Shown here: in pieces, positions 2,225 to 16,753 of the stretch
How the letters are laid out: each line of letters begins with the position of its first letter
Numbering within the stretch: the first letter of the stretch is position 1
NCBI GenBank assembly: GCA_964352735.1
Contig: CAYGTC010000007.1
Coordinates: 22,379-86,378 of the forward strand
Direction of reading: 5' to 3'
From: an uncultured Alcanivoracaceae bacterium
GTDB taxonomy: Bacteria > Pseudomonadota > Gammaproteobacteria > Xanthomonadales > Marinicellaceae
Length of the DNA stretch: 64,000 nucleotides
Notes under the pieces: model-generated
Seen by the model: only the letters and a program-made list of their open reading frames with translations
Told to the model about the DNA's origin: nothing
Database searches by the model: none
Program-made: the position numbers and the translations under genes

Positions 2225-3293
2225 TTTTTGCTCTGAATTTTAATTTTGTTTTCACTTTATTTCCAAATTGATCTTCTGCTATGACTTTAATGAAATTGCG
2301 TCCTCTTTTAAAAAAAGTGAAATTTTGCGGTAAAGGCTCCCACTGTTTTCGAACACTGAAATATTTGGCATATTTTAGTGATGTGTCATCTTCCACTGTA
2401 AGAAATATGTCTTGGTTGGTATTAACAATATACTTATGTCTTTTGGTGTCTAACGTTTGACCATCAATTTTGATTATAATGCTTGGTTTTTTATCATCAA
2501 CATTCCAAGCTATCGTTTCAGTGCTGCTATTACCAAGCTTATCCTCAGCCACCAATACACTGTTATTTTTGACTTTCATCTCAACTGAGTTACCATTAAT
2601 TTTATCGCCATTTAAGGTAAGTGAAGTCACTCCTACATCATCGATTGCTTCAACTCTTATCTGAGCTTTTGAACCAGCCAACCACTTTCCATTCTGCTTT
2701 ACAGCAGGCCCCAGCAACTCCCAATTGAATTGTGGCCCTTGAAAGTCAGCAATTAACCTTTCTTGTTTGATGTTTTCATTGCCAAAATAATCACTCGCTT
2801 TTACCGTAACAAGAGACGAATCTTTGGAAAATTCAACGCCCTGCTCATTATCTACGGCTTCACCATCAATCTGCACTGAAACATTACCTGAATCATCAAC
2901 AGCAACCCATTTCATCCTACTTTTAGGGCCAACAATTGTTTTATCACCCTTGTTAAATGTATTTGACCAAGTCAAATCTATGTCAGGCCCTATATCATCA
3001 ATCAATAAAATATTATCATTCGATTTAAGTTCTTTTGCCCCTTGCACTTGGATATCATGAACAACAATCCTATCCTGAGCATCTTTTATTAACAATTGAT
3101 ATTGACCAGCAGCCAAATCATTCAAACCTTCATCAATCGATTTAAAAACTCCACCATTGATGGCCCAAGTATTTGAATCTACCAACTGCAGCTGATTAAC
3201 AATATCTTTGGCCGATGAGAAGGTTAACGATTGCGCATTAATGTGAGTCGTTGCGATTATCAGACATGACAGTAGTATTTTCACTGCTTGCAT
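2211..3293 (-). CDS. secreted protein with tandem Ig-like repeats
   Basis: 360-aa ORF with a strong SD (TAAGGAG, 7 nt upstream of ATG 3293) and signal peptide MQAVKILLSCLIIATTHINAQS. Beta-sandwich-type motifs recur: VAVDDSGN, ASDYFGN, AIDDVGV, AEDKLGN, AEDQFGN. Confidence 0.5.
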   Translation of the reverse strand: MQAVKILLSCLIIATTHINAQSLTFSSAKDIVNQLQLVDSNTWAINGGVFKSIDEGLNDLAAGQYQLLIKDAQDRIVVHDIQVQGAKELKSNDNILLIDDIGPDIDLTWSNTFNKGDKTIVGPKSRMKWVAVDDSGNVSVQIDGEAVDNEQGVEFSKDSSLVTVKASDYFGNENIKQERLIADFQGPQFNWELLGPAVKQNGKWLAGSKAQIRVEAIDDVGVTSLTLNGDKINGNSVEMKVKNNSVLVAEDKLGNSSTETIAWNVDDKKPSIIIKIDGQTLDTKRHKYIVNTNQDIFLTVEDDTSLKYAKYFSVRKQWEPLPQNFTFFKRGRNFIKVIAEDQFGNKVKTKLKFRAKNDGK

Positions 3294-5190
3294 AAATAAG
3301 CTCCTTAGATGATTGAATGCCTGCTAACTTGGCATTCCAATGTGGTTTTTGTGGCGCTGCATCGGAAATCATGCGTGCTACTTCAGCTGCTGTTTCTGGT
3401 CGATTATCAGGGTTTTTATCCAACAATTTCAGAATTACTGTTATTAACTTTTCGGATTGTTTTGTAATCATTTTCTCTGGAAATAAAACTTTTTTAATAA
3501 GTGTATTACTTCTGGTTGTGTGCACTTTCTTAGCCAGGAAAGGGTTTTTACCTAACAAACATGTTGCAATCAATGCCCCCAAAGCAAATAAATCACTTTT
3601 CACGCTGACTGTTCCATGCTCATATATTTCAGGGGCAATGTATCCACTTGTTCCAGTCACATGATCTTTGGTTAAAGTTTGCAATAATGCTGTTGTGCCA
3701 AAATCAGTGATTTTAATGTCGCCATTAATGCCCAATAAAATATTTTCAGGTTTGATATCTCTATGCACAAAACCAAGTTCATGTGCACTATGCAGACCTT
3801 TAGATATGGCAATGGCGATGACTATGGTGTGTTCAATTGTTAATCTTTTATTTCTGTGTACAAAAGCATGCAAGGTTTCTCCATCAATGTATTCCATGGC
3901 AATAAAAGCAGTGGTATTAGTCGAGACCACATCAAATATGGAAACGACATTACGATGAGATATTCTGGCAGCAGTAATCGCCTCCTGAACCAACGTTTCA
4001 CTCATATTCCTGCGACTACCAAATGCACTCTTTATGGGCAATGTTTTTAAAGCCACATGTCTTTTTAACCTAGGGTCCCAACCCAAAAATACCGATCCCA
4101 TACCGCCCATACCAATTTGACTGATCACTTGATAACGATCAACAAAAATCTGACTCAAGGCATTTCTATTATCTATGTGTTTACTGATGGTTTCAAAACT
4201 TTTTTCTAAAGCTGTTACCTCACTGCCTTGCCATTGGCCTTGTTGAGTTTGTTCACCCAAGAGACTTTGGTAAGCATTAATGACTCTTCTTAATGGTTTA
4301 ACCCAAGAAATATAAGCCCAAAGTATTAAAAATATCATGGCCATCAGGATAAAAATAAAAACTTTACGAGCAGTGTCAACCATTTTACTGGCTGCTGCTT
4401 CGGCAAATTTTACAGGTTGTCTAGATATGATTGACCACTCTACGTTCTTAATTGAGGCTATGGCAAATATGCTTTTTTGTCCTTCTAGTTCATAACGATT
4501 GGCAGAATCAATTATATTCCCAGATCTGAGTTGTTGAGATAAAGACTTTGGAAGAGCGAACGCACCTTGTCCTGAGTGCTTTATTAAAAGCCCATCATTT
4601 TCAATCAATGACAAACTTGCAAAGTCCCCCAATAAACTTGGATTAAGCACATCATCAATCTTTAGGGATAATAAAGCAGAGAGATACACTTGTGGTCTGG
4701 CAGTTTTTACATGAATAACCAACTGCCTCTGATTTGTTAGAGAGACCAAAAAAATGGGTTGATCAATCTTTTTTGTGATCAGATCCTGGGCTACTTGAGA
4801 ATCTACTTGGTTTTTTTTAACCAACTGAATAATATTATTTTGAGTACTGATTTCTCGCGTTACCAACCCAATCGCATTGATATTATTTTGCGCAATTAAC
4901 GTTGACTTTAATAATTCTGCAGCACCTTCGGAATCTGGTTGCAAATAAATCGTCGGATTATTGCCCAAGGCTTCAAGTGTTGTGATGTATTGATCAAGCA
5001 AGTTCTCCATTCTATCTGCCGTAGCCCTAGAAACGATCATATGAGATTTTTGCGATTGATTAATGATCGCTTCTTGTGAATTGTTAATTTGGTACCATGA
5101 TAACAAAAAAGGTAAAATTCCCATTGCCAATAAAGTTAAAAATACCCAAATAATGATAGACCTATTTTTAAATTGCACTCTACACCCCAA
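3238..5190 (-). CDS. transmembrane Hanks-type Ser/Thr protein kinase with N-terminal extracytoplasmic Cache-like sensor
   Basis: TM1 (IIIWVFLTLLAMGILPFLL) is followed by a ~240-aa predicted periplasmic region and TM2 (VFIFILMAMIFLILWAYISWV). All kinase motifs are present: GMGGMGSV, VALK, HRDIKPENILL, DFG, GTSGYIAPE, DNRP. There is no in-frame ATG at the 5' end, so the start is TTG 5190 or GTG 5178. Confidence 0.85.
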   Translation of the reverse strand: MGCRVQFKNRSIIIWVFLTLLAMGILPFLLSWYQINNSQEAIINQSQKSHMIVSRATADRMENLLDQYITTLEALGNNPTIYLQPDSEGAAELLKSTLIAQNNINAIGLVTREISTQNNIIQLVKKNQVDSQVAQDLITKKIDQPIFLVSLTNQRQLVIHVKTARPQVYLSALLSLKIDDVLNPSLLGDFASLSLIENDGLLIKHSGQGAFALPKSLSQQLRSGNIIDSANRYELEGQKSIFAIASIKNVEWSIISRQPVKFAEAAASKMVDTARKVFIFILMAMIFLILWAYISWVKPLRRVINAYQSLLGEQTQQGQWQGSEVTALEKSFETISKHIDNRNALSQIFVDRYQVISQIGMGGMGSVFLGWDPRLKRHVALKTLPIKSAFGSRRNMSETLVQEAITAARISHRNVVSIFDVVSTNTTAFIAMEYIDGETLHAFVHRNKRLTIEHTIVIAIAISKGLHSAHELGFVHRDIKPENILLGINGDIKITDFGTTALLQTLTKDHVTGTSGYIAPEIYEHGTVSVKSDLFALGALIATCLLGKNPFLAKKVHTTRSNTLIKKVLFPEKMITKQSEKLITVILKLLDKNPDNRPETAAEVARMISDAAPQKPHWNAKLAGIQSSKELIYASSENTTVMSDNRNDSH

Positions 5191-5492
5191 AATTCAATGT
5201 CGACATTATAAAGAATTTTACTCAACTGAGGTATCAAATTAACGTTTCTTTACAATTTATTCAATATATTTTTTGTGACGCATATCACAAATAAAAATAA
5301 ATAAATATAAGTTATTGTAATGCAATCTATTTATTGTATTTTGATTTTTACACTTAATTTAAATATCCCTAATAATCTAACCCTTGGTCATCCGTGAATT
5401 TATTTGGTGGCTATCAATCGCATTCTGAGGAAGATCAAACTCATCAATCTCATGCAGTGCTAAACTTTCCAACGAGCACAGCGATCAAACTG

Positions 5493-5532
5493 AAAGTAAC
5501 AAAGTAACAAAGTAACAAAGTAACAAAGTAAC
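5493..5532. repeat. perfect tandem octamer repeat (AAAGTAAC) x5
   Basis: Five uninterrupted copies were read directly. They lie in the 419-bp gap between the nlpD stop and the kinase operon start. Confidence 0.95.
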
Positions 5533-5609
5533 ATTTTATATAAAAACTCTTAAAATAGCACCCGTAATTGAAAAGAGAGTAAAAACCTGAAATAGCTCAA
5601 TAAATAAAG

Positions 5610-6551
5610 CTATTTTTTAGGCAAATATTTCAAAGGGTTAACGGGTTGGCCATTTTTTCTGATTTCAAAATGCAGTAACGATTTACCATCATTGCCCTTA
5701 CCAGATTTAGCAATATGTTGGCCTTGTTTAACTGTTTGTCCTTCTTTGACCAATCTTTGAGAATTATGTGCATAGGCACTGAGAAGATTATCGGTGTGTT
5801 TGATAATGATCAACTCTCCATAACCTCTTAGACCGTCACCACTGTAGACCACCGTTCCATTATTGGTAGCCACTACAGTTGTGCCTTGACTGGCACTAAT
5901 ATCGATGCCTTTCCTAGACACATCTGCAGCAGAAAAGGTACTGATAACACGTCCATTAAGAGGCCACACCCATTTTGAACTGGCAGGTTTGACTGGCTGA
6001 GTTACTGGTTTTTTTACAATTGGCCGTGATTGAGGCTTATTCACAGGTTTAGTCACTGGTTTTTTTGCCACTGGCTTTGTAACATTAGGCTTTTTTGAGA
6101 CTTGAATAGGTTTCTTTACCGCAGGCTTTTTATTGTAGTTTTGCTTGGGTATTTTTGCTGGAGGTGTTGTTTTTCTAACAACAGTACCTATGGGTTTCGG
6201 TTTGATGCGAACAGGATGTGATCGGGCTTGCGCTACTTGGTTCCTTTGACGGCCTTTTGATTTTTTTAATCGCAGTTTTTGCCCAGGATAAATGTTATAG
6301 GGTGACTTTATTCGATTAATGCTGGCCAATTTTTTATAATCAATGCTGTATTTAAAACCCAAAGCATAAAGCGTATCACCTTTTCTAACAACCACCTCAT
6401 CAGGCACAAATCGTTTGGTCATTCTCTTTTGATGAACCCGATTGTATTTTCGAGGCTTGACTTCCTTAACAGGTGCAGGTGAATGAGGAGAGCAAGACGT
6501 CATAAGAACAAAGCTCAATAATATCAAACTGTGTAAAACAGCAGACCTCAT
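5610..6551 (-). CDS. nlpD: murein hydrolase activator NlpD (LysM + degenerate M23 peptidase lipoprotein)
   Basis: Lipoprotein-type signal (LMTSC), a LysM block (VVRKGDTLYALGFKYSIDYKKLASINRI) and a K/P-rich linker. The M23 domain has degenerate metal ligands (KGIDI, LLHFEI), as in E. coli NlpD. It follows surE-pcm. Confidence 0.85.
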   Translation of the reverse strand: MRSAVLHSLILLSFVLMTSCSPHSPAPVKEVKPRKYNRVHQKRMTKRFVPDEVVVRKGDTLYALGFKYSIDYKKLASINRIKSPYNIYPGQKLRLKKSKGRQRNQVAQARSHPVRIKPKPIGTVVRKTTPPAKIPKQNYNKKPAVKKPIQVSKKPNVTKPVAKKPVTKPVNKPQSRPIVKKPVTQPVKPASSKWVWPLNGRVISTFSAADVSRKGIDISASQGTTVVATNNGTVVYSGDGLRGYGELIIIKHTDNLLSAYAHNSQRLVKEGQTVKQGQHIAKSGKGNDGKSLLHFEIRKNGQPVNPLKYLPKK

Positions 6552-7207: not shown

Positions 7208-7959
7208 TGAATCAAATCACTCCACTTTCTCAATGCTTCTAATGCACTGTGTTTGGTCATATCAACTTTCATGGGTGTGATCGACACGTAACCATTTTTA
7301 ACCGCATGAAAATCAGTGCCTTCACCGGCATCTGCCTCAGCACCTGCAGCGCCAATCCAATAAATTTTACGCCCCCTTGGGTCTGTATCTTTGATGGCAC
7401 TTTCCGCTTTATGCCTATTGCCTAGTCTGGTAATTTTTACGCCTTTAACCTGATCGATAGGAACATTCGGAAAATTGATATTTAAGATACTGTCATCAGG
7501 CAGCGCATTGGTTTTAATGTGCTTGATGATTTTCTTGATATAATGCTGAGCCGTATCAAAATATCGCGGCTGACCATGCTTTGTCGCCAATGATAATGCT
7601 AAAGCAGGCAAACCCAAATATCGCCCTTCTATGGCAGCAGCCACAGTACCAGAATACAACACATCATCACCAAGATTCGCAGCATTGTTGATTCCGGAAA
7701 CAACCATATCAGGCTCTTCTGTCATAACACCAGTTAAAGCCATATGCACACAATCTGTGGGCGTCCCATTAACTGAATACCAACCATCAGACACTTGGTG
7801 TATACGAATAGGCCTATCTAAAGTCAAGGAATTACTGGCACCCGATCGATCTCGGTTCGGCGCAAAAACCGTAACTTGACCCATGTCATTCAATGTCTCA
7901 GATAACAACTTAATGCCAGTTGCAAAAACGCCATCATCATTACTGATTAAAAAGTGCAT
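7204..7959 (-). CDS. surE: 5'/3'-nucleotidase SurE
   Basis: 251 aa with the N-terminal ISNDDG motif and [22 protein letters not shown]. It sits in the surE-pcm-nlpD order. Confidence 0.95.
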
Positions 7960-8311
7960 AACAGATGTATTTAAAAAGGATTTATTATAGGTTACCTCTA
8001 TTAATTAATCAATCAACTCAGCTCGACATTGGGCAAGCATTATCAATGTTATCGTATTCTTATTAATAACACTCACAATTAAGAAAATATCGTCAGATTT
8101 CGACACCACTGTTACCAAAAATGGCTTACATCGATGCTGAATTAAGTCAATAAAAAATCCCTTTGCATCGCAAATGATATTAAGTAAAAGGCAATAATCG
8201 CAGTCACTATTTTTCAGTACAAATAGTAAAATAATTTTATTTTCTTTGTTTTGTTCATTCTTTTCATTTAGTGTGTAAAATGATGGTTTATTGTCATAAA
8301 TTTTTATCCCG

Positions 8312-10549
8312 ATGTCGAAAATTCTTAATTTTGAAATCATGCCCATGGGCGAATACGCTGAAAAGGCTTATTTGGATTATTCCATGTATGTTGTTTTGGA
8401 CCGCGCCTTACCTTTTGTAGGTGATGGACTTAAGCCAGTACAAAGACGCATCGTTTATGCGATGAGCGAACTGGGCTTATCCGCCAAATCAAAACACAAG
8501 AAATCTGCACGCACCATTGGAGATGTGATTGGTAAATATCATCCACATGGAGATTCTGCCAGTTATGAAGCCATGGTATTGATGGCGCAGCCTTTTTCTT
8601 ATCGTTATCCTTTGGTAGATGGTCAAGGTAACTTCGGTTCACCAGATGACCCTAAGTCATTTGCAGCCATGCGTTACACCGAATCGAGACTGACGCCCTA
8701 TTCTAAAAGCCTGTTACAGGAAGTCCCTTTGGGCACCATTGATTGGCAACCCAATTTTGATGGTACTTTACAAGAACCCGTTTTTTTACCTGCGCGCTTA
8801 CCGAATATTTTACTCAATGGCGGTTCAGGTATCGCCGTCGGTATGGCCACAGATATACCTCCACATAATTTACGTGAGGTTTCAGCTGCATTGTTTCATT
8901 TATTAGATCATCCCGATGCCAGCATAGAAGACTTGTGTCAGCATATACAAGGCCCTGATTATCCAACATATGCCGAAATCATTACACCCAGAAAAGACAT
9001 TATTGACATTTATACTTCTGGCAAAGGCAGCATTAGAATGCGCTGCGTACATGAACGAGAGGATAAAAACATTGTCATTACAGCGCTGCCACACCAAGCC
9101 AGTCCTGCAAAAATATTAGAACAAATTGCCACGCAGATGCGCACCAAAAAATTACCGATGGTTGAAGATTTAAGGGACGAATCAGATCATGAAAATCCTT
9201 TTAGGCTGGTGATCATAACACGCTCTAATCGCATTGACTATGATGGACTAATGAGTCATTTGTATGCAACAACCGACTTGGAAAAGTCTTTTAGAGTCAA
9301 TTTAAATTTAATAGGCTTGGATAAGCGACCTCAAGTTAAAAATCTCAAGCTCATTTTACAAGAGTGGCTAAGCTTTAGAACTGAAACCGTAAGGCGCAGA
9401 TTGCAATATAGATTAGATAAGGTTGATGCCCGTTTGCATATTTTGCAAGGCTTGTTGATTGCTTATCTTGATTTAGATGAAGTGATAAGAATCATACGCG
9501 AAGAAGAACATCCTAAAGAAACCTTAATTGCCACTTTTAAATTATCTGAAATTCAAGCCGAAGCCATTTTAGAAACAAAGCTTCGTAACCTTGCTCGCCT
9601 CGAAGAAATGAAAATCAAAACTGAGCAAATGGAATTGATGGCAGAAAAAGATGAAATCACCGGCATATTGATGTCACGTGCCAAGTTAAAAAAACTGATC
9701 AAAACTGAAATCATGGAAGACACTGAACTGTATGGTGATGCCAGAAGAAGTATGATTGTAGATCGTGCAGCGGCTAAAGTATTTGATGAAACCAGTCTAG
9801 TACCCAATGAGCCAAACACCATCATCATGTCAAAAGCCGGTTGGGTTCGCGCAGCAAAAGGCCATGATATTGACACCCAAAAATTAAGCTTTAAATCCGG
9901 TGATGAATATGCCCACCATGCGAGAGGACGCAGCAATCTTAATGCAGTATTCTTGACCAATAACGGTCGCAGCTTCTCTCTACTTTCGCACACCCTACCC
10001 TCCGCAAGAGGGCAAGGTGAAGCGTTAACCACGAAGTTTAAATTACCTGAGGACAGTCAATTTGTCGCGACAGTCTGCGAACAAGCCGATACCATTTTAC
10101 TAATGGCAAGCTCTGCTGGTTATGGGTTCATTACAGAAACTGAAAACCTTTATTCCAAAGTTAAAGCAGGCAAACAATGTATTTCTGTACCCAAAGGTTT
10201 TACCACCATACCACCCAAAGTTATCAACAATATAGATGAGGACTTTATCATTTGTGTAACCAGTGCCGGATATCTTTTGGCCTTTCCCGTGCGAGAATTA
10301 CCTCATTTAACCAAAGGTAAAGGCAATAAAATGATCAACATACCACCAAAGTTGCTCAAAGCTGGCGATGAAAAAATGATTGATATGATTGTGGTCAGTG
10401 AAAACCAATCCTTTTTAGTGTGGGCAGGTGCCAGATACATCAGAATAAAATGGAAAGATCTACAAAACTTTTTGGGATATCGTGCCAAACGTGGTAGCCT
10501 ATTACCTAAAGGGTTTAGAAATGTTGATCGACTGGAAAAAGAAACTTAA
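8312..10549 (+). CDS. parC: DNA topoisomerase IV subunit A
   Basis: 745 aa, near colinear with E. coli ParC as I recall it ([32 protein letters not shown]..., [10 protein letters not shown] catalytic Tyr region). It is shorter than GyrA. Confidence 0.93.
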
Positions 10550-11363
10550 GTTCATATTGATACCGATATCAGGTCAATGTCTGGCATTGCCTGATATCCC
10601 CAGCCTACAAAATTGTCCTGACAACATTTTTCATGCCAGTTTTCAAAATGATTCCCAACCCAGCAATGGTGCTGGTGGCGCAACAGGCAGCTTGACCAGG
10701 ATCATCAATTTTCCTGGAGGATCCAGTCTCTATTTTTTATACGTGCCTTCAACTTATGATCCTACAATACCCATCCCATTATTGATCACCTATCATGGTA
10801 CAGCAGGTGCTGGCAATGCCAGCCAACAAGCACAAGCGATCAGAAATTTTTGGCTACAAACCGCAGAGGACAATAACTTTATTGTATTGGCACAAACCGG
10901 CAGCAGTGCCAATGGCTCATGGACTGTTGGACTGGACTTTCCATTGATTAGGGATGAAATTCTGGATGAAGTTTTTGCCTTTTATAATATTGAGACAACA
11001 AGGACTTATGGTCATGGATTTTCAGCAGGCGGCCATGTCATGCACACCATGATGCTGTTTTATAATAACAATCGATTTGCCGCCTACACAGTCAGTGCTG
11101 GTGCTTTAGAACGAGATGCGATTCAGGAAGACCCCAATGTCCCAGCCAACAACAGTGTTGTACCCGTTTATATTTCGCACGGGCAGTTTGACAATATTGT
11201 GCCCATATCATTGGCCAATGACGATTATGCAAAATTTATACAAGCAGGTTGGCAAGACGGCAGAACGATATGGATAGATACTTTTAATGGAGGTCATACC
11301 ATTGAAGCAACTTTTCCTCAAAAAAGTTGGGATCAATTGTGTCGATTTACCACAGTTGACTAA
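10521..11363 (+). CDS. alpha/beta-fold esterase, PHB-depolymerase/LpqC-like family
   Basis: [27 protein letters not shown] followed by [10 protein letters not shown], with nucleophile elbow GHGFSAGG. The start is taken at ATG 10521. ATG 10482 would extend the overlap with parC further. Confidence 0.6.
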
Positions 11364-11387: not shown

Positions 11388-11420
11388 CAAAAAAACCTGA
11401 AAAATATTCAGGCTTTTTTA
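11388..11420. terminator. bidirectional terminator between convergent esterase and LTD genes
   Basis: Stem CCTGAA (11396-11401) pairs with TTCAGG (11407-11412). An A-run lies upstream and a T-run downstream. Confidence 0.7.
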
Positions 11421-11435
11421 TTAGGATTATGGTGT

Positions 11436-12059
11436 TTATTCAACAGAAAAATTCATCAATTCCACTGGCAATAAACCCAGCGTTTTGACACCCAAATCAT
11501 CAAACGTGTCTTGTGGGAATGAAGACCATTCAATTGAAGGATCATAGGGATCATTGACATTGGTATCGCCGCCACAGGTTAATGCATTTCTTCTCAACGT
11601 TTCATTTTGCGTGCCTACACCACCAGCATTCCACTCTGAGCCTGGGTCACCCAGTAGATCTCCTATACTGTCTATTGTAAGCGCACCATTGCGCAATTCA
11701 ATGGTATCATCTCCATTAAAAGTCATGACAGTTGACGAGGTTAGCTGATCTGCCAAAGCAAGGAGAGAGGCATTTGCTGAATTGTTGGCAACAACAAATA
11801 CATCGTTATCTGCTATCGAGCCACTGAGTGAAAGAGAAGACGCACCACCAGTACCGCCATTAGTGTTTCTGATCAATGTGTAACTGGTCAAATCAACAAG
11901 TGCACCTGTTCCATTGTAAATTTCTATGGCTTTATTGTTACCACTGCCCTCAACATACTCAGAAATGATTAAATCCTCCTGTAAAAGAGGACACCCACCT
12001 GCTGCGACAGTAAATGATGAGATCAATGCAAAACCAGTAACCAATATTTTGTGTGTCAT
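11436..12059 (-). CDS. secreted lamin-tail-domain (LTD) protein, paralogue 1
   Basis: 207 aa with a signal peptide (LVTGFALISSFTVAA). The LTD signature matches the N-terminus of ExeM/NucH-type extracellular nucleases (LIISEYVEGSGNNKAIEIYNGTGALVDLTSY...DVFVVAN...FNGDDTIEL...DSIGDLLGDPGSEW...NETLRR). It ends in LPVELMNFSVE. Confidence 0.75.
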   Translation of the reverse strand: MTHKILVTGFALISSFTVAAGGCPLLQEDLIISEYVEGSGNNKAIEIYNGTGALVDLTSYTLIRNTNGGTGGASSLSLSGSIADNDVFVVANNSANASLLALADQLTSSTVMTFNGDDTIELRNGALTIDSIGDLLGDPGSEWNAGGVGTQNETLRRNALTCGGDTNVNDPYDPSIEWSSFPQDTFDDLGVKTLGLLPVELMNFSVE

Positions 12060-12175
12060 AGAAGTATTTCCTTTAAGTTAAGCCTCATGGATATTATCAA
12101 AATAGTAAGCTTTTCACAATATGTGCTTTGAAACAAGCTTGGAAAACACCATAGGAAAGCCATTGAATACAGGCA

Positions 12176-12210
12176 ATAAAAAACCTGAGAAAATCTCAGG
12201 CTTTTATTTT
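12176..12210 (-). terminator. rho-independent terminator of LTD paralogue 2
   Basis: Stem CCTGAGA (12184-12190) pairs with TCTCAGG (12194-12200), and a T-run follows on the minus strand. It is sequence-related to the hairpin at 11388-11420. Confidence 0.7.
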
Positions 12211-12233
12211 AAAAGTGAATTGACAGAAAATAA

Positions 12234-12887
12234 TTATTCAACAGAAAAATTTTCTAACTCAACGGGCAATTCTGTACCACCAGCACCACCATCAGCACCA
12301 GGTGTAGCAACCATTGTCGCATTAGCATTGCTACCGGAAATTATAGTCGTTTCCCAAAAACCTGTTGGAGAAGGGTCATTTGGTTTTGGAGATGGCGCAT
12401 TTATTCCAGTAGGAGTTGTTACTCCCCAAGAACCATCATTCGGTAATTGACTGGCTACTCTATGCGCCACTACATTTGAAGCAAAAGTATCAGTACCACC
12501 AATGCGATCAACTCCAAAACTATCAACAACAGATGTACCATTAAAAAGGTCATATTTGTCATTGCCATTATGGTTAATCGAGGTACTGACTTGATCCACA
12601 GTGCCAGCGCCGAATAACGTGTTAACATCTGTCGGACCAACCACATAAAAACCACCAGCAGGTATGACTCCGGTCAAAGTCACGGTTGTCGGAGTCGTTC
12701 CCCCATTACTGTAACGACGCAATTGCCACCCATCAACACTAAAATCAACAGCAGCACCACTGTTATGTAATTCAACAAACTTTGCAATACCGCCATTGGA
12801 CTCAAAAACTTCAGATATAAGTACATCCGCAGACACCGACGCCGACAATAAAACCGACAAACTGGCCAAAATTATTTTTTTATTCAT
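12234..12887 (-). CDS. secreted lamin-tail-domain (LTD) protein, paralogue 2
   Basis: 217 aa with signal peptide (ASLSVLLSASVSA/DV) and a divergent LTD (VLISEVFESNGGIAKFVELHNSGAAVDFSVDGWQL...GFYVV...NGNDKYDLF...DSFG). It ends in LPVELENFSVE. Confidence 0.7.
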   Translation of the reverse strand: MNKKIILASLSVLLSASVSADVLISEVFESNGGIAKFVELHNSGAAVDFSVDGWQLRRYSNGGTTPTTVTLTGVIPAGGFYVVGPTDVNTLFGAGTVDQVSTSINHNGNDKYDLFNGTSVVDSFGVDRIGGTDTFASNVVAHRVASQLPNDGSWGVTTPTGINAPSPKPNDPSPTGFWETTIISGSNANATMVATPGADGGAGGTELPVELENFSVE

Positions 12888-13228: not shown

Positions 13229-16200
13229 ATGAATAAAAAATTCATCACTTTATGCATTATAAGATTCAAGCCTATCGTTTTAATTTTACTGTTTTACTGC
13301 CTCACAGCACATGCATGGTGGGACAGTGACTGGAATCATCGTGTCAACATAACAGTTGACAACACATCAGCCACCGCTGTAACCAGCTACGAAGTTAAAC
13401 TCACCATTGATGCCAGCAATGCGCCAAACTTCGATTGGAGCAACAACGGAAATGATATTCGCTTTATTGACAGCGATGACATGACAATGTTAGCTCACTT
13501 TATTGAGTCATACGATGGCATTGCAGAAATCGCCACAGTTTGGGTGAACGTACCTAATATAGCTGCAATGGACTCTGCCAATTTATTTTTTTATTATGAC
13601 AACAGCACAGCTACTAATACGACTGATGCCAGTGCAACATTCTCCCAAAGCGGCCTCAAATATCATACACGCAACAGCACATTAGACCCAGACAGTTTGG
13701 CCACAGCTCAGTCTACTTTTGATGGCATAGCCGATGGCACAACAGGATTTGGTTGCAGCAATGTCACTGCATTTACCTCTTTAGAAAACAGCGAACTTTA
13801 TGGCAGCAATAACGCCATGGCTTTGACCTCTGAGGTATTCTTTAACATGCCATCTGGCGGCACATTACAACTCAGATTAGGAGGCGATTTTGGTGATGGA
13901 GGTGGATTATATGTAGACAATACCGTTATAGAAGAGTTATGGGGACCTGTTGGCACAGGTGATGACATGTGGTGGGCCAACACTTGGGCCAGCTTTACAA
14001 CTTCACAAGAAATACTTTATGGATCAATTGTTCTATCTGCGGGTTACCATGTCCTCAGACACATTGGTTTTGAGCAATGTTGTGATGGTGATGCTACATT
14101 GGAATACCGCATCGGCACCACTGGCTCATGGCTGGCGTTCAATACCAGCAATTTATCATTGGTCAGCCCTCAATGCCCTGTTAGCACTGCTGCAAGTTTT
14201 GCCGCCGAAGAAACATTCGATGCAATCATCGGCTATGTTTCATCACAATTTCACGATCAACATGTGCTGATAGAATGGCAATCGAACTCTGAAAGTTTTA
14301 ATGTGGGATTTAATATATGGATACAAGATCACACCGGCAAATGGCTTAAATCTAACGCAGAACTGATCCCATCAGAAAAAATTAACAGCCTCACACCTTT
14401 ACAATACCATTACCGTGTTGACAATATGTCTATTGAACATTTTCAAATCAGTTCAATCAATATCCATGGAAAAGAGGAATTTTATCGCACTTATGAAGTA
14501 AAAAAATCATATGGAAGGAAAACCACAACACAATCCATTGATTGGTCGATAGTCAATCAACAAAATAACACTAAGATTAAGCAAAGAAATCTGCTCAAAA
14601 ATTCACAGCTCACCCAGATCGATCAACAGGATCTTGTCGCCAATATTAAAACCAGCAAAACCGGCATAACTAGGGTTTATTTTGACCAGTTGATGGCCGC
14701 TGGCTTGGATATCACTCAGTTTGATGACAATAATTTAGCCGTTAGCTTTAAAGGTCGTGCAATCGCGCGTAATGTACATATTGATCATAATTCTGAAAAC
14801 AGTTACGTGGAATTCTTCGCCCAAACTCTGAATAATATTGATGCCTTATACCTCTCACAAGCCATTTACCAAATTTCAAATCAGCCAGATTTAGTAAAAC
14901 ACAGCAAAAACAACCGAATTCATAGACCTCTCACATTAACACAATCATATAACACAACAGATACCCGAGATAATAATGTTGTGTATAATTTTGCCAGCAG
15001 CAGCTCAGATCCTTGGTTTGAAAAATTATTAGCCAATTTTGGAAATGGGGCCACTCATCGCATTGAATTGACAAAACCAATTGATTTAGCGCTAAATGAT
15101 AACATCAACATAACGTTAAAAATGATGGGATTAACAGATTATCCTGGTAATGCTGCGATTAATCCAGACCATCACCTTAAAGTCATTCTCAATAATAACA
15201 CAGTCATATTTGATGGATTTGAAGATGGCATAGTTGATTGGCACATCAGCATACCTCTTACCAGCCAACAATTAGAGGATGGCGTCAATACATTAGATTT
15301 AACCTTGGTCAGTGATACTGGTTTTAGTGCTGATATGGTTTATTTTGACAAACTTGAGATCGATTATACAAAACCTCTGGCTAAAAATAATCAGCCGCTA
15401 TTATTCTCTACAGACCAAAAAAATACAGAATTTGAATTATCAGGCTTCATAGACAAAAATTTTATCGCCTATGCGCACAGCGCTTCAGGAGATTTGTTTG
15501 AACTGTACATTGATGACGAACCCTCAAATATCGATCGAATATTTATGGATCAATTTGAAATTCAGCTCACTCAACACCATTATGTTGATGCAATCAATGC
15601 CACTGGCAGTCACCAGTATTGGTTTTCTGATGCCGATACAGCACTAGCGGTTGATGAAATTCATATCACCAGCAAAGAAAAAATAACATTAGATAATAGC
15701 CATTACTTAATCATATCTGACACCAATTTTATCAATCACGATCTTGAACGCTTTAAAAATGCGAAGCAACAACAAGGACTTAAAACGTCCATTATCAGTT
15801 GGCAAGATATCATTGAAAAAAACGGAAATGGCTACGCTACCCCAGAAACTTTGACACGCTTTTTGAGTTCAACTTACCAGCATTTTCGCTTTACACATGT
15901 CTTGTTGGTTGGTGCTCAAACATATGATTACAATAATTACCTCGGGTTAAACACCGTCAATTTTATTCCAACGCATTATATGAAAACCAATGGGAACTTC
16001 CATTACACGCCGACTGATTTTCCATATACGGACATCAATAAGGATGGCTATCCAAATTTTGCACTGGGTCGCTGGCCAGTAAGAACAACACAAGAACTGA
16101 ACACCATTGTCAACAAAACCCTCACATGGCAACAACAACACCCATCAAATACCATCAATTCATTATTAATTGCTGAACAACAAGATCAAAACCTCATCAA

Positions 16201-16753
16201 TTTTGCCGAACAAGCTGACAGTGTTGCAAATACTTTACAGCTTGACGCTGATTTAACCCAAAAAGTATATGTGGATGATTACCTCGCTTCTTCCTCGGAT
16301 GATCCGATTGCTGAGGCAAAAAACGACTTAATCAACCACATCAATGGTGGCGTTGACTTGGTTATATTTGATGGCCATGGTAGCCCCACCACCTGGGCAT
16401 ATCAAAACTTATTCAATACACAGGATGTTGTGCAATTAACTAACATAAATCATCCATTTTTATTATCTCCATTGAGTTGTTATACCACATATTATGAAAA
16501 CCCCAGCACCAATACTTTAGCCCATCAAATGTTATTTTCAGGACAGAATGCTGCAGTAGCCATTCATGGCGCCATGGTATTAAGCCAATACTTATCCAAT
16601 CAAAACATGGCCACAACCACTTTGAAAGATATGATTGAGCGACAAAGCACCTTGGGAGAAGCCATAATGCGTGCTAAAATTGACTTATATCATGCCATTG
16701 ACGATAATATCCTCAACTGGAGTCTACTTGGTGATCCTGCAATTACGCTGTAA
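13229..16753 (+). CDS. large secreted multidomain protein: DUF2341 + PA14-like + beta-sandwich + C-terminal peptidase C25 (gingipain/PorU-like) domain
   Basis: 1174 aa with a signal peptide ending AHA. DUF2341 signature WWDSDWNHRVNITVDN...IRFID...VWVNVP...FFYYDN. PA14-like block LQLRLGGDFGDGGGLYVDNTVIEELWG. The C25 block runs from YLIISDTNF (about 15704) to LLGDPAITL, with GHG (His codon 16376-16378) and LSC (Cys codon 16478-16480). Confidence 0.75.
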   Translation: MNKKFITLCIIRFKPIVLILLFYCLTAHAWWDSDWNHRVNITVDNTSATAVTSYEVKLTIDASNAPNFDWSNNGNDIRFIDSDDMTMLAHFIESYDGIAEIATVWVNVPNIAAMDSANLFFYYDNSTATNTTDASATFSQSGLKYHTRNSTLDPDSLATAQSTFDGIADGTTGFGCSNVTAFTSLENSELYGSNNAMALTSEVFFNMPSGGTLQLRLGGDFGDGGGLYVDNTVIEELWGPVGTGDDMWWANTWASFTTSQEILYGSIVLSAGYHVLRHIGFEQCCDGDATLEYRIGTTGSWLAFNTSNLSLVSPQCPVSTAASFAAEETFDAIIGYVSSQFHDQHVLIEWQSNSESFNVGFNIWIQDHTGKWLKSNAELIPSEKINSLTPLQYHYRVDNMSIEHFQISSINIHGKEEFYRTYEVKKSYGRKTTTQSIDWSIVNQQNNTKIKQRNLLKNSQLTQIDQQDLVANIKTSKTGITRVYFDQLMAAGLDITQFDDNNLAVSFKGRAIARNVHIDHNSENSYVEFFAQTLNNIDALYLSQAIYQISNQPDLVKHSKNNRIHRPLTLTQSYNTTDTRDNNVVYNFASSSSDPWFEKLLANFGNGATHRIELTKPIDLALNDNINITLKMMGLTDYPGNAAINPDHHLKVILNNNTVIFDGFEDGIVDWHISIPLTSQQLEDGVNTLDLTLVSDTGFSADMVYFDKLEIDYTKPLAKNNQPLLFSTDQKNTEFELSGFIDKNFIAYAHSASGDLFELYIDDEPSNIDRIFMDQFEIQLTQHHYVDAINATGSHQYWFSDADTALAVDEIHITSKEKITLDNSHYLIISDTNFINHDLERFKNAKQQQGLKTSIISWQDIIEKNGNGYATPETLTRFLSSTYQHFRFTHVLLVGAQTYDYNNYLGLNTVNFIPTHYMKTNGNFHYTPTDFPYTDINKDGYPNFALGRWPVRTTQELNTIVNKTLTWQQQHPSNTINSLLIAEQQDQNLINFAEQADSVANTLQLDADLTQKVYVDDYLASSSDDPIAEAKNDLINHINGGVDLVIFDGHGSPTTWAYQNLFNTQDVVQLTNINHPFLLSPLSCYTTYYENPSTNTLAHQMLFSGQNAAVAIHGAMVLSQYLSNQNMATTTLKDMIERQSTLGEAIMRAKIDLYHAIDDNILNWSLLGDPAITL

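Follow-up and report, generated by a model that had tools for sequence, protein, structure and literature searches.

We analysed a stretch of DNA of 64,000 nucleotides (hereafter the window) from an uncultured Alcanivoracaceae bacterium of the Gammaproteobacteria, in which two genes of the LTD family lie in tandem on the minus strand and encode proteins with nearly the same short C-terminal peptide, below called the tail. In our reading the tail is very probably a functional, autonomous C-terminal tag that would be read in trans after Sec export. The window has a G+C content of 38.6%. The first gene, LTD1 (11436..12059, minus strand, 207 amino acids (aa)), encodes a signal peptide with a lipobox-like ...VAAGGC, then an LTD fold (aa 28-133, nt 11661-11978, minus strand), a linker and the tail LLPVELMNFSVE (aa 196-207, nt 11439..11474, minus strand), and is closed by TAA at 11436-11438. 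The second gene, LTD2 (12234..12887, minus strand, 217 aa), encodes a signal peptide ending ...SASVSA before DV, an LTD (aa 16-126, nt 12510-12842, minus strand), a Gly/Ala-rich linker and the tail ELPVELENFSVE (aa 206-217, nt 12237..12272, minus strand), followed by TAA at 12234-12236. The two open reading frames (ORFs) end in ...GLLPVELMNFSVE and ...GTELPVELENFSVE respectively, that is, in LPVELMNFSVE and LPVELENFSVE directly before the stop. The original prediction, placed at 11436-12269, took in the whole first gene but, of LTD2, no more than the 3' end, and its description of two diverged LTD paralogues with a shared tail is confirmed. Both proteins are members of the Pfam family LTD (PF00932), at 54.6 and 50.5 bits where the cutoff is 34.3, and each is similar to the LTD at the N-terminus of the nuclease ExeM. 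They are 31% identical across the N-terminal 137 aa (E=3e-7), being unalignable between there and the tail. The tail codons of LTD1/LTD2 are exactly as had been stated, namely CCA/CCC, GTG/GTT, GAA/GAG, TTG/TTA and ATG/GAA, then AAT TTT TCT GTT GAA TAA in both. The identity of the last 18 nt probably says little alone, since these are all A/T-ending codons in a genome of 38.6% G+C. A degenerate DNA pattern for PVELxNF[ST]V[ED] plus stop has two matches in the window versus none in 100 shuffles, and P[VIL]E[LIVM]xxF is found in the six-frame translation of the window solely at the two LTD ORF ends.

The tail is kept in LTD orthologues of 78%, 59% and 52% identity; an LTD2 orthologue fragment (P0158) retains it, and a related metagenome contig encodes two adjoining tail proteins. 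In LTD1 and its orthologues the signal peptide is closed by a lipobox-like ...[FV]-A/S-G-G/N-C-P (11991-12059 of the window, minus strand), so LTD1 may be a lipoprotein, unlike LTD2 with its ordinary cleavage site (ASVSA before D). Next to LTD1 lies a gene for a PHB-depolymerase-like secreted esterase without tail (10482..11363, plus strand), a syntenic neighbour also in the loci L007, L012 and L013, where the gene order parC, esterase, tail cargo, C25 peptidase is conserved. Among them, L007 is the syntenic metagenome-assembled genome (MAG) 'Alcanivoracaceae bacterium NORP309', the nearest labelled relative. A terminator-like bidirectional hairpin, CCTGAAAAATATTCAGG (11396..11412), stands between the esterase gene and LTD1, and a near-identical one, CCTGAGAAAATCTCAGG (12184..12200), stands downstream of LTD2; both hairpins after the LTD genes have the form CCTGA-N7-TCAGG with flanking A/T runs.

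Overall, the results show that the tail is not confined to these genes. In one genome per GTDB species, the strict pattern PVELxNF[ST]V[ED] plus stop gives seven matches (about one expected by chance, as calculated), each of which is the true C-terminus of a signal-peptide protein, with different families represented; they come from four Acidobacteriota MAGs, one Marinicellaceae MAG, one Alcanivoracaceae MAG (L007) and one Chitinophagaceae-labelled MAG. A second pattern, PVELMxFxV[ED] plus stop, is found at no fewer than 120 metagenome loci, and the counts of ORFs, clusters and neighbours in tail loci reported below are those among the matches listed of this second pattern, plus other tail loci. 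There are at least 131 tail ORFs, 99 of them complete with a median of 276 aa, which form at least 43 clusters unrelated by BLASTP, and a simple heuristic detects a signal-peptide-like h-region in 90 of 97 complete ones. At least 11 loci have more than one tail gene, the maximum being five in tandem. The sources are Gammaproteobacteria, Acidobacteriota and many soil and sediment metagenomes, and a database search for tail C-termini leads to unrelated secreted families in several phyla. The consensus of 127 non-redundant tails is [VLI]-P(127)-V(126)-E(127)-L(126)-M(118)-x-F(123)-x-V(122)-E(110)/D(16)-COOH, with E or D as the final residue in 126 of the 127; V, L or I stands directly before the Pro, and G/N/D/S-rich linkers lie ahead. 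The wobble positions of the tail track G+C content, and no conserved sequence is found downstream of tail genes except the next tandem paralogue, which shows that selection acts on the peptide; the stronger case for this is that the tail is kept in diverged orthologues and conserved across phyla. The earlier claim of selection on the peptide rather than gene conversion is thus borne out. A DNA element or stop-codon readthrough was also considered as the cause of the tail and rejected, since the in-frame extensions are unremarkable and the downstream sequence is unconserved.

Two side observations concern the tail genes themselves. At a G+C content of at least 0.6, TAG is the stop codon in 76 of 98 tail genes versus 7 of 32 confidently identified neighbours (L014-L133; Fisher p=2.6e-8, phylogeny-uncorrected), and both tail-gene stops in the AT-rich window are TAA, unlike the TAG excess elsewhere. 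The other is a repeat family, 'GPEFRVNTYTT...QDGS..GVFGQRY', whose paralogues of about 420 aa form tandem arrays of up to five genes (L039, 1240-7523; also L030, L038, L048 and L083). Every member starts with a signal peptide and ends in the tail PVELM[HR]F[RG]VE, and against Pfam none scores above the gathering threshold, with a borderline CopC match only (E=1.4e-4).

DNA patterns cannot prove that the tail is always terminal, because they force a stop codon. A tail profile that requires no stop was therefore compared with a word-indexed protein database, where 11 of 11 matches are at the C-terminus, and when 1.84 billion representative proteins were searched exhaustively with HMMER, all 55 matches with E<=0.001 were at the extreme C-terminus. 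In these 55, the distance from the invariant Phe to the protein end is 3 aa in 47, 4 aa in five and 5 aa in three. In the metagenome pattern, TGG stands in place of the stop in 0 of 132 cases, a count judged uninformative on internal copies because it could only detect internal motifs with Trp next.

The tail is also separable from the fold that carries it. The AlphaFold2 (AF2) model of LTD1, made from 48 aligned sequences, has an LTD core of lamin-like fold with a confidence score (pLDDT) above 90 and matches the Ig domains of lamin A/C and B1 (Foldseek E about 2e-4, probability 1.00), and its residues 191-207 have pLDDT 50-60 and no secondary structure. In 120 homologues of LTD1, the PVEL tail is found in four, a tail WGxLKAxYR in 39 and a T9SS (type IX secretion system) type A C-terminal domain (CTD) in about 21, the last being Bacteroidota-type sequences. 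The possibility that the tail is a common structural strand of LTD proteins is therefore discarded, as 116 of the 120 homologues are without it and AF2 leaves it unstructured. Homologues of the proprotein-convertase P-domain likewise end either in the PVEL tail or in a transmembrane (TM) tail of the IPTL-CTERM type. Judged from these sequences, the tail behaves like a modular C-terminal tag, with a 'choice of anchor' pattern as in known sorting signals. The P-domain protein in L013 (6234-6965, minus strand) has such an IPTL-CTERM-like TM tail, VPSLSFYGIILMMGLLIVMMVYRQKRRA, scoring 17.4 bits with TIGR04174 (cutoff 20.5). The tail of the 39 homologues, ...[ST]WGxLKAx[YF]R before the stop, belongs mostly to proteins of about 207 aa from MAGs (e.g. 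Krumholzibacteriia; among P0009-P0077). No NCBIfam model matches it, and it may be a second unannotated C-terminal tag.

Neither the tail nor the main tail families match any model of Pfam and NCBIfam (June 2026 release), and full-text literature searches with peptide strings and for C25/PorU sorting signals outside Bacteroidota gave nothing relevant, which agrees with the suggestion that the tail is undescribed, there being no curated model and no searchable paper found. The CTERM-type models (LPXTG, PEP-CTERM, GlyGly-CTERM, IPTL-CTERM and MYXO-CTERM) match none of the tail proteins, the P-domain protein of L013 serving as CTERM control (IPTL-CTERM, 17.4 bits). As originally described, there is no hydrophobic helix or basic anchor as in LPXTG or PEP-CTERM proteins, the protein ending F-S-V-E-COOH. 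A difference from the T9SS CTD had been pointed out too, and it stands, the tail being of 11 aa only: the CTD models TIGR04183 and TIGR04131 have no match in LTD1 or LTD2 at E<=0.1 or in other tail proteins at E<=5 (control P0082: TIGR04183 at 51.6 bits), and a small local CTD hidden Markov model (HMM) has none over about 0.8 Mb of tail loci. No T9SS core genes (PorK/L/M/N, SprA/Sov, PorV) were seen among the ORFs of the 64-kb window. The tail proteins also differ from type I secretion substrates and from proteins with the beta-signal of outer-membrane proteins, as they have Sec signal peptides and end in an acidic, not an aromatic, residue.

The nearest likeness to the tail is found at the start of a domain of Bacteroidota proteins. 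Bacteroidota proteins have a motif 'LPVELLSFTA...W.TASE.NN.GFEVERS.DG', and a consensus of it matched 31 Bacteroidota plasmids by tblastn, with E down to 9e-28. In all 11 Bacteroidota proteins fetched, a domain of about 95 aa starting PLPVEL(L/T)SFTA lies directly N-terminal of the last 72-90 aa, and in three of these proteins scanned with NCBIfam the only match is TIGR04183 (T9SS type A CTD), at the last 70-77 or so residues. The domain itself, here called the LPVEL domain, is in neither Pfam nor NCBIfam, and no solved relative was found; the Trp of strand B, together with the YYRL...DG of strand F, suggests an FN3-like fold. It is common on diverse cargo of Bacteroidota plasmids (L143-L153), including choice-of-anchor L, LamG, RCC1, ice-binding and heparinase proteins. 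Its strand A has the columns L(10/10)-P(10)-V(8)-E(6)-L(10)-x-x-F(10)-T(7)-A(9). Dozens of tails align to positions 2-12 of the domain HMM and nowhere else in the domain, the LTD1 tail aligning to positions 3-11, and tail and strand A mirror each other in P, V, E, L, F and a small or hydrophobic residue at +2. The strands B-G (V.L.W.TASE.NN.GF.VERS.DG..F ... YYRL.Q.D.DG...YSP) are absent from the tail proteins, in which the stop follows strand A.

Searching six-frame ORFs of all loci with the same domain HMM yields a small lipoprotein family in four tail loci, with E from 1e-9 to 1e-7: L100 (6892-7434, minus strand), L082 (1-594, plus strand), L126 (2084-2575) and L130 (frameshifted). These proteins have a lipobox Cys, an unconserved polar linker of about 45 aa rich in Pro, Ala, Ser, Gly and Glu, and then the domain, which begins at strand B (NTLRWKTASEVDNFGF...YYYIESISMAGVRERFSPV), without strand A and without an extra C-terminal strand. 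The distance to the tail gene is 0.1-2 kb in the four loci (a gap of 94 bp in L082), and in L020 a related protein adjoins a P-domain tail gene. Cargo with strand A only and lipoproteins with strands B-G only are thus encoded together, and it is from this that the model of strand complementation is drawn.

Divergent from LTD2, the window encodes a PorU-like C25 cysteine peptidase, secreted and of 1174 aa (13229..16753, plus strand), which is the only candidate partner of the tail within the window. It comprises a DUF2341 (nt 13445-13645, plus strand), a CCXG-like region (aa 144-312, nt 13658-14164, plus strand), an FN3-like beta-sandwich (aa 334-423, 14228..14497, plus strand; HMM positions 16-96, E 0.1-6) and the C25 catalytic domain (nt 15704-16750, plus strand; PF01364, 215.2 bits). 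The catalytic dyad (16376..16480, plus strand), His1050 in DGHGS (nt 16376-16378) and Cys1084 in LSCYT (nt 16478-16480), aligns with the catalytic GHG and Cys of PorU (6ZA2) and of gingipain R (RgpB, 1CVR) and is invariant in five orthologues. The best solved relative is PorU 6ZA2 (E=2.4e-11). The PorU model NF033707, with a cutoff of 420 bits, is matched at 142.6 bits by the C25 protein of the window and at 210 and 216 bits by those of L076 and L100, all below the cutoff. The CCXG-like region scores 89.8 bits with NF038118 (cutoff 90), a model named 'CCXG family PEP-CTERM protein' (compare P0139), and from this match the N-terminal half appears homologous to PEP-CTERM cargo. The FN3-like domain is a weak relative of the LPVEL domain and stands at the same place in three orthologues. 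The AF2 model of the whole protein is poor (mean pLDDT 39.8), its best part being a seven-strand sandwich at aa 334-430, in which the strands 334-342 (IGYVSSQFH, its own strand A) and 345-352 make a hairpin.

Three full-length C25 orthologues were found. In L012 (C25 71% identical) a single LTD gene occupies the same position and ends in the tail MLPVELINFSVD before the stop. On the whole, C25 genes beside tail genes belong to two lineages, the window with L012 on the one side and L076, L100 and L130 on the other; since the identity between the lineages is 21-24%, the two that have tail genes beside C25 are deeply separated. L076 and L100 share their gene order and 39% identity in C25, and both C25 and the strand-less lipoprotein are encoded in L100 and in L130. 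As a separate observation, the C-terminal 200 aa or so of the L076 protein (2617-6075, plus strand) weakly match the TafC fimbrial family (E=2.8e-10, below cutoff), which is worth noting because C25 proteases take part in the strand exchange of type V pili. The linkage to C25 on which the original prediction was built therefore holds in part: tail genes do stand beside PorU-like C25 genes in two lineages, yet this is so in only three of 127 other tail loci, and we regard the link as real and not general.

Other neighbours of tail genes were found by all-against-all clustering of adjoining ORFs together with Pfam and NCBIfam annotation. SurA/PpiC-like isomerases recur in 18 loci and sulfatase-family proteins, in many cases lipoproteins with a fused TPR, in 11; further recurrent neighbours are ASPIC/FG-GAP proteins in five, Tricorn/S41 peptidases in four and PorU-like C25 in three (L076, L100, L130). 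Typical gene orders are ASPIC, tail, sulfatase-TPR, PpiC in L006; C25, sulfatase, PpiC, tail in L076; and C25, sulfatase, lipoprotein, PpiC, tail, PpiC in L100. The linkage varies by tail family: in 'family A', PpiC is present in 9 of 12 loci and sulfatase in 7 of 12, and none of these neighbours is near the GPEFRVNTYTT family of about 420 aa in 36 loci. In the 'sulfatase' lipoproteins beside tail genes (L006, 4044-6182; L076, 6173-8038; and others), which have a fused C-terminal TPR array, FDTTRADH replaces the sulfatase motif C/S-x-P-x-R, which suggests that Thr serves as the nucleophile, as it does among phosphotransferases and phosphodiesterases in the alkaline-phosphatase superfamily.

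Compared with known systems, the tail shares several features with the T9SS cargo of Bacteroidota. It corresponds to the first strand, PLPVELxSFTA, of the pre-CTD domain; the tail proteins have a Sec signal peptide, and a PorU-like C25 with His/Cys dyad is encoded beside tail cargo; and in Bacteroidota, proteins homologous in the LTD core end in a T9SS CTD. Unlike T9SS cargo, the tail keeps about 11 residues, without the strands B-G and the CTD export signal of 70-100 aa, no T9SS gene or CTD-like ORF is seen in the window or the tail loci, and the C25 proteins are far under the PorU cutoffs. Gammaproteobacteria and Acidobacteriota are not known as T9SS phyla. The tail is also like the tripartite signals with their processing enzymes (LPXTG/sortase, PEP-CTERM/exosortase, GlyGly-CTERM/rhombosortase, MYXO-CTERM/myxosortase, and IPTL-CTERM) in being a short conserved C-terminal signature, carried by many unrelated secreted proteins with several per genome or locus, swapped among homologues and found in soil and sediment bacteria. 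For PEP-CTERM in particular, the TPR lipoprotein and PpiC-type isomerase neighbours recall PrsT and EpsD, and the tail starts with [VIL]-P as does VPEP. It is unlike the tripartite signals in that it has neither TM helix nor basic cluster, ends three (rarely four or five) residues past the Phe and is acidic, and there is no sortase, exosortase or rhombosortase gene among the recurrent neighbours. A third comparison is with pili built by donor strands. Chaperone-usher pili use donor-strand complementation and exchange, and in the type V pili of Bacteroidia, whose pilins are lipoproteins, a C25 gingipain removes a strand and the C-terminal strand of the next subunit is inserted. By analogy, the terminal beta-strand of the tail would complete an Ig/FN3-like fold in trans, with a lipoprotein as acceptor and C25 in the same loci. 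The differences are that there is no pilin fold or evidence of polymerisation, that the donors are diverse enzymes and binding proteins and not identical subunits, and that the acceptor is natively without strand A, not by proteolysis as in type V pili.

Based on these findings, we tentatively combine the two links into a model in which the tail would act by beta-strand addition to a strand-less acceptor, with the PorU-like C25 as an associated processing enzyme. Docking by strand addition, besides or instead of the protease site that had been supposed, is suggested by the match to strand A and by the strand-less domains beside tail genes. Cargo would be exported by Sec, and machinery of the envelope would recognise its tail in trans; the flexible tail would then insert as the missing edge strand into a cognate acceptor, proposed in other lineages to be the small lipoprotein carrying the same domain minus strand A. 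Once docked, the cargo would be tethered or presented at the envelope, presumably also the final location of the LTD proteins, and C25, with its intact His/Cys dyad, may trim, release or ligate it. In its full form, which we hold as possible and with rather more caution, tail and lipoprotein would be the two halves of a split FN3-like domain, giving surface tethering that is independent of T9SS, spans phyla, may be aided by C25 as in the strand exchange of type V pili and is linked to the stalk domain of T9SS cargo.

Several points weigh against this reading. The evidence is computational throughout; the match between tail and strand A is short, at about 10 residues, and no more than 10 sequences underlie the domain HMM. 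The strand-less lipoprotein is present in only four of 127 tail loci and C25 in only three, most loci being shorter than 5 kb. In the 64-kb window there is no acceptor lipoprotein, nor PpiC, sulfatase or ASPIC genes. The FN3-like domain of C25 was considered as acceptor and is unlikely to be one, as it already has a strand A according to the AF2 model and to conservation in orthologues. In L013, the C25 orthologue of 47% identity (7374-10874) has no PVEL tail gene beside it; the place taken by LTD genes in the window is filled there by the IPTL-like P-domain gene, with TPR and ASPIC/FG-GAP genes immediately upstream of it, and four other C25 homologues (P0140, P0141, P0144 and P0146) have no tail gene nearby. 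Finally, the commoner neighbours PpiC and sulfatase-TPR may be the real readers of the tail.

Among the alternatives, one that we consider rather unlikely is that the tail is a linear signal of the sortase type, in which C25 would read PVEL..F..E, cut at it or upstream and release or transfer the cargo, the likeness to strand A reflecting origin from a truncated module of T9SS cargo. C25 adjoins tail genes in two deeply diverged lineages with its dyad intact and with PorU as nearest structure, and Bacteroidota homologues of the LTD core use the T9SS CTD. PorU is a sortase-like transpeptidase which prefers a small residue, then V, L or I, after the cut (PMC4560394), and the tails with their linker and V/L/I before the Pro can be compared with this preference. 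However, C25 is found in only 3 of the 24 tail loci of at least 8 kb, L013 has C25 without a tail gene, and the strand-less lipoproteins in tail loci are left unexplained. PorU is moreover described as cutting independently of sequence, with the fold of the CTD as its guide (PMC4804311), which does not favour a linear signal.

A further alternative, to which we give still less weight and which we think unlikely, is that the tail is a periplasmic chaperone or modification signal. The SurA/PpiC-like isomerase or the sulfatase TPR would bind ...V-E-COOH in the manner of a carboxylate clamp and guide folding, export or a modification of the phospho-transfer type, and C25 and the lipoprotein would be accessory or unrelated. 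This is consistent with the presence of PpiC-like genes in 18 tail loci and of sulfatase(-TPR) genes in 11, often directly adjoining, and recognition of a C-terminus would suit the fixed spacing from the free carboxylate and the acidic final residue. There is a weak resemblance of the neighbours to two proteins of the PEP-CTERM system, the isomerase EpsD and the TPR lipoprotein PrsT (PMC1569441), but the EpsD/PrsT HMM matches are far under the cutoffs; besides, no PpiC or sulfatase-TPR gene is present in the window, and the EFRVNTYTT family of tail proteins is without these neighbours in 36 loci.

It is very improbable that the tail is a vestigial stub, functionless or a spacer, left after the loss of the FN3-like domain and the CTD: its homology is to the opening strand of a longer domain, and the frequent TAG stops could hint at an origin by nonsense mutation, but P, V, E, L and F hardly vary between phyla or among at least 43 unrelated families with unalignable flanks, the end point is constant, the wobble positions vary, and several tail paralogues occur per locus. 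Gene conversion, duplication of the 3' end or chance as the cause of the tail identity in the window has practically no probability left, for although the last 18 nt are identical and similar hairpins follow both genes, there are four synonymous differences and one replacement within the tail and no shuffle matches, and the same tail in distant phyla on unrelated proteins refutes conversion or chance.

Short C-terminal sorting signals such as LPXTG, PEP-CTERM, GlyGly-CTERM and the T9SS CTD have each opened up a sorting pathway. The present tail is borne by dozens of unrelated secreted families at the least, in Gammaproteobacteria, in Acidobacteriota and in bacteria abundant in soil and sediment. 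It is unannotated by curated models, and its format is unprecedented, being 11 residues long, acidic at the free end and without a membrane anchor. From the sequences, the tail appears to be a C-terminal sorting tag of a new format, evolutionarily tied to the architecture of T9SS cargo and to PorU-like peptidases. A regular expression or HMM would improve the annotation of many 'hypothetical' secreted proteins. The homology to strand A, the strand-less lipoproteins and the links to C25, PpiC and sulfatase-TPR give testable ideas on how exoproteins may be tethered in diderms other than Bacteroidota, and bear on how the architecture of T9SS cargo is related to other systems. If docking by a split domain were true, this would be a categorically new system.

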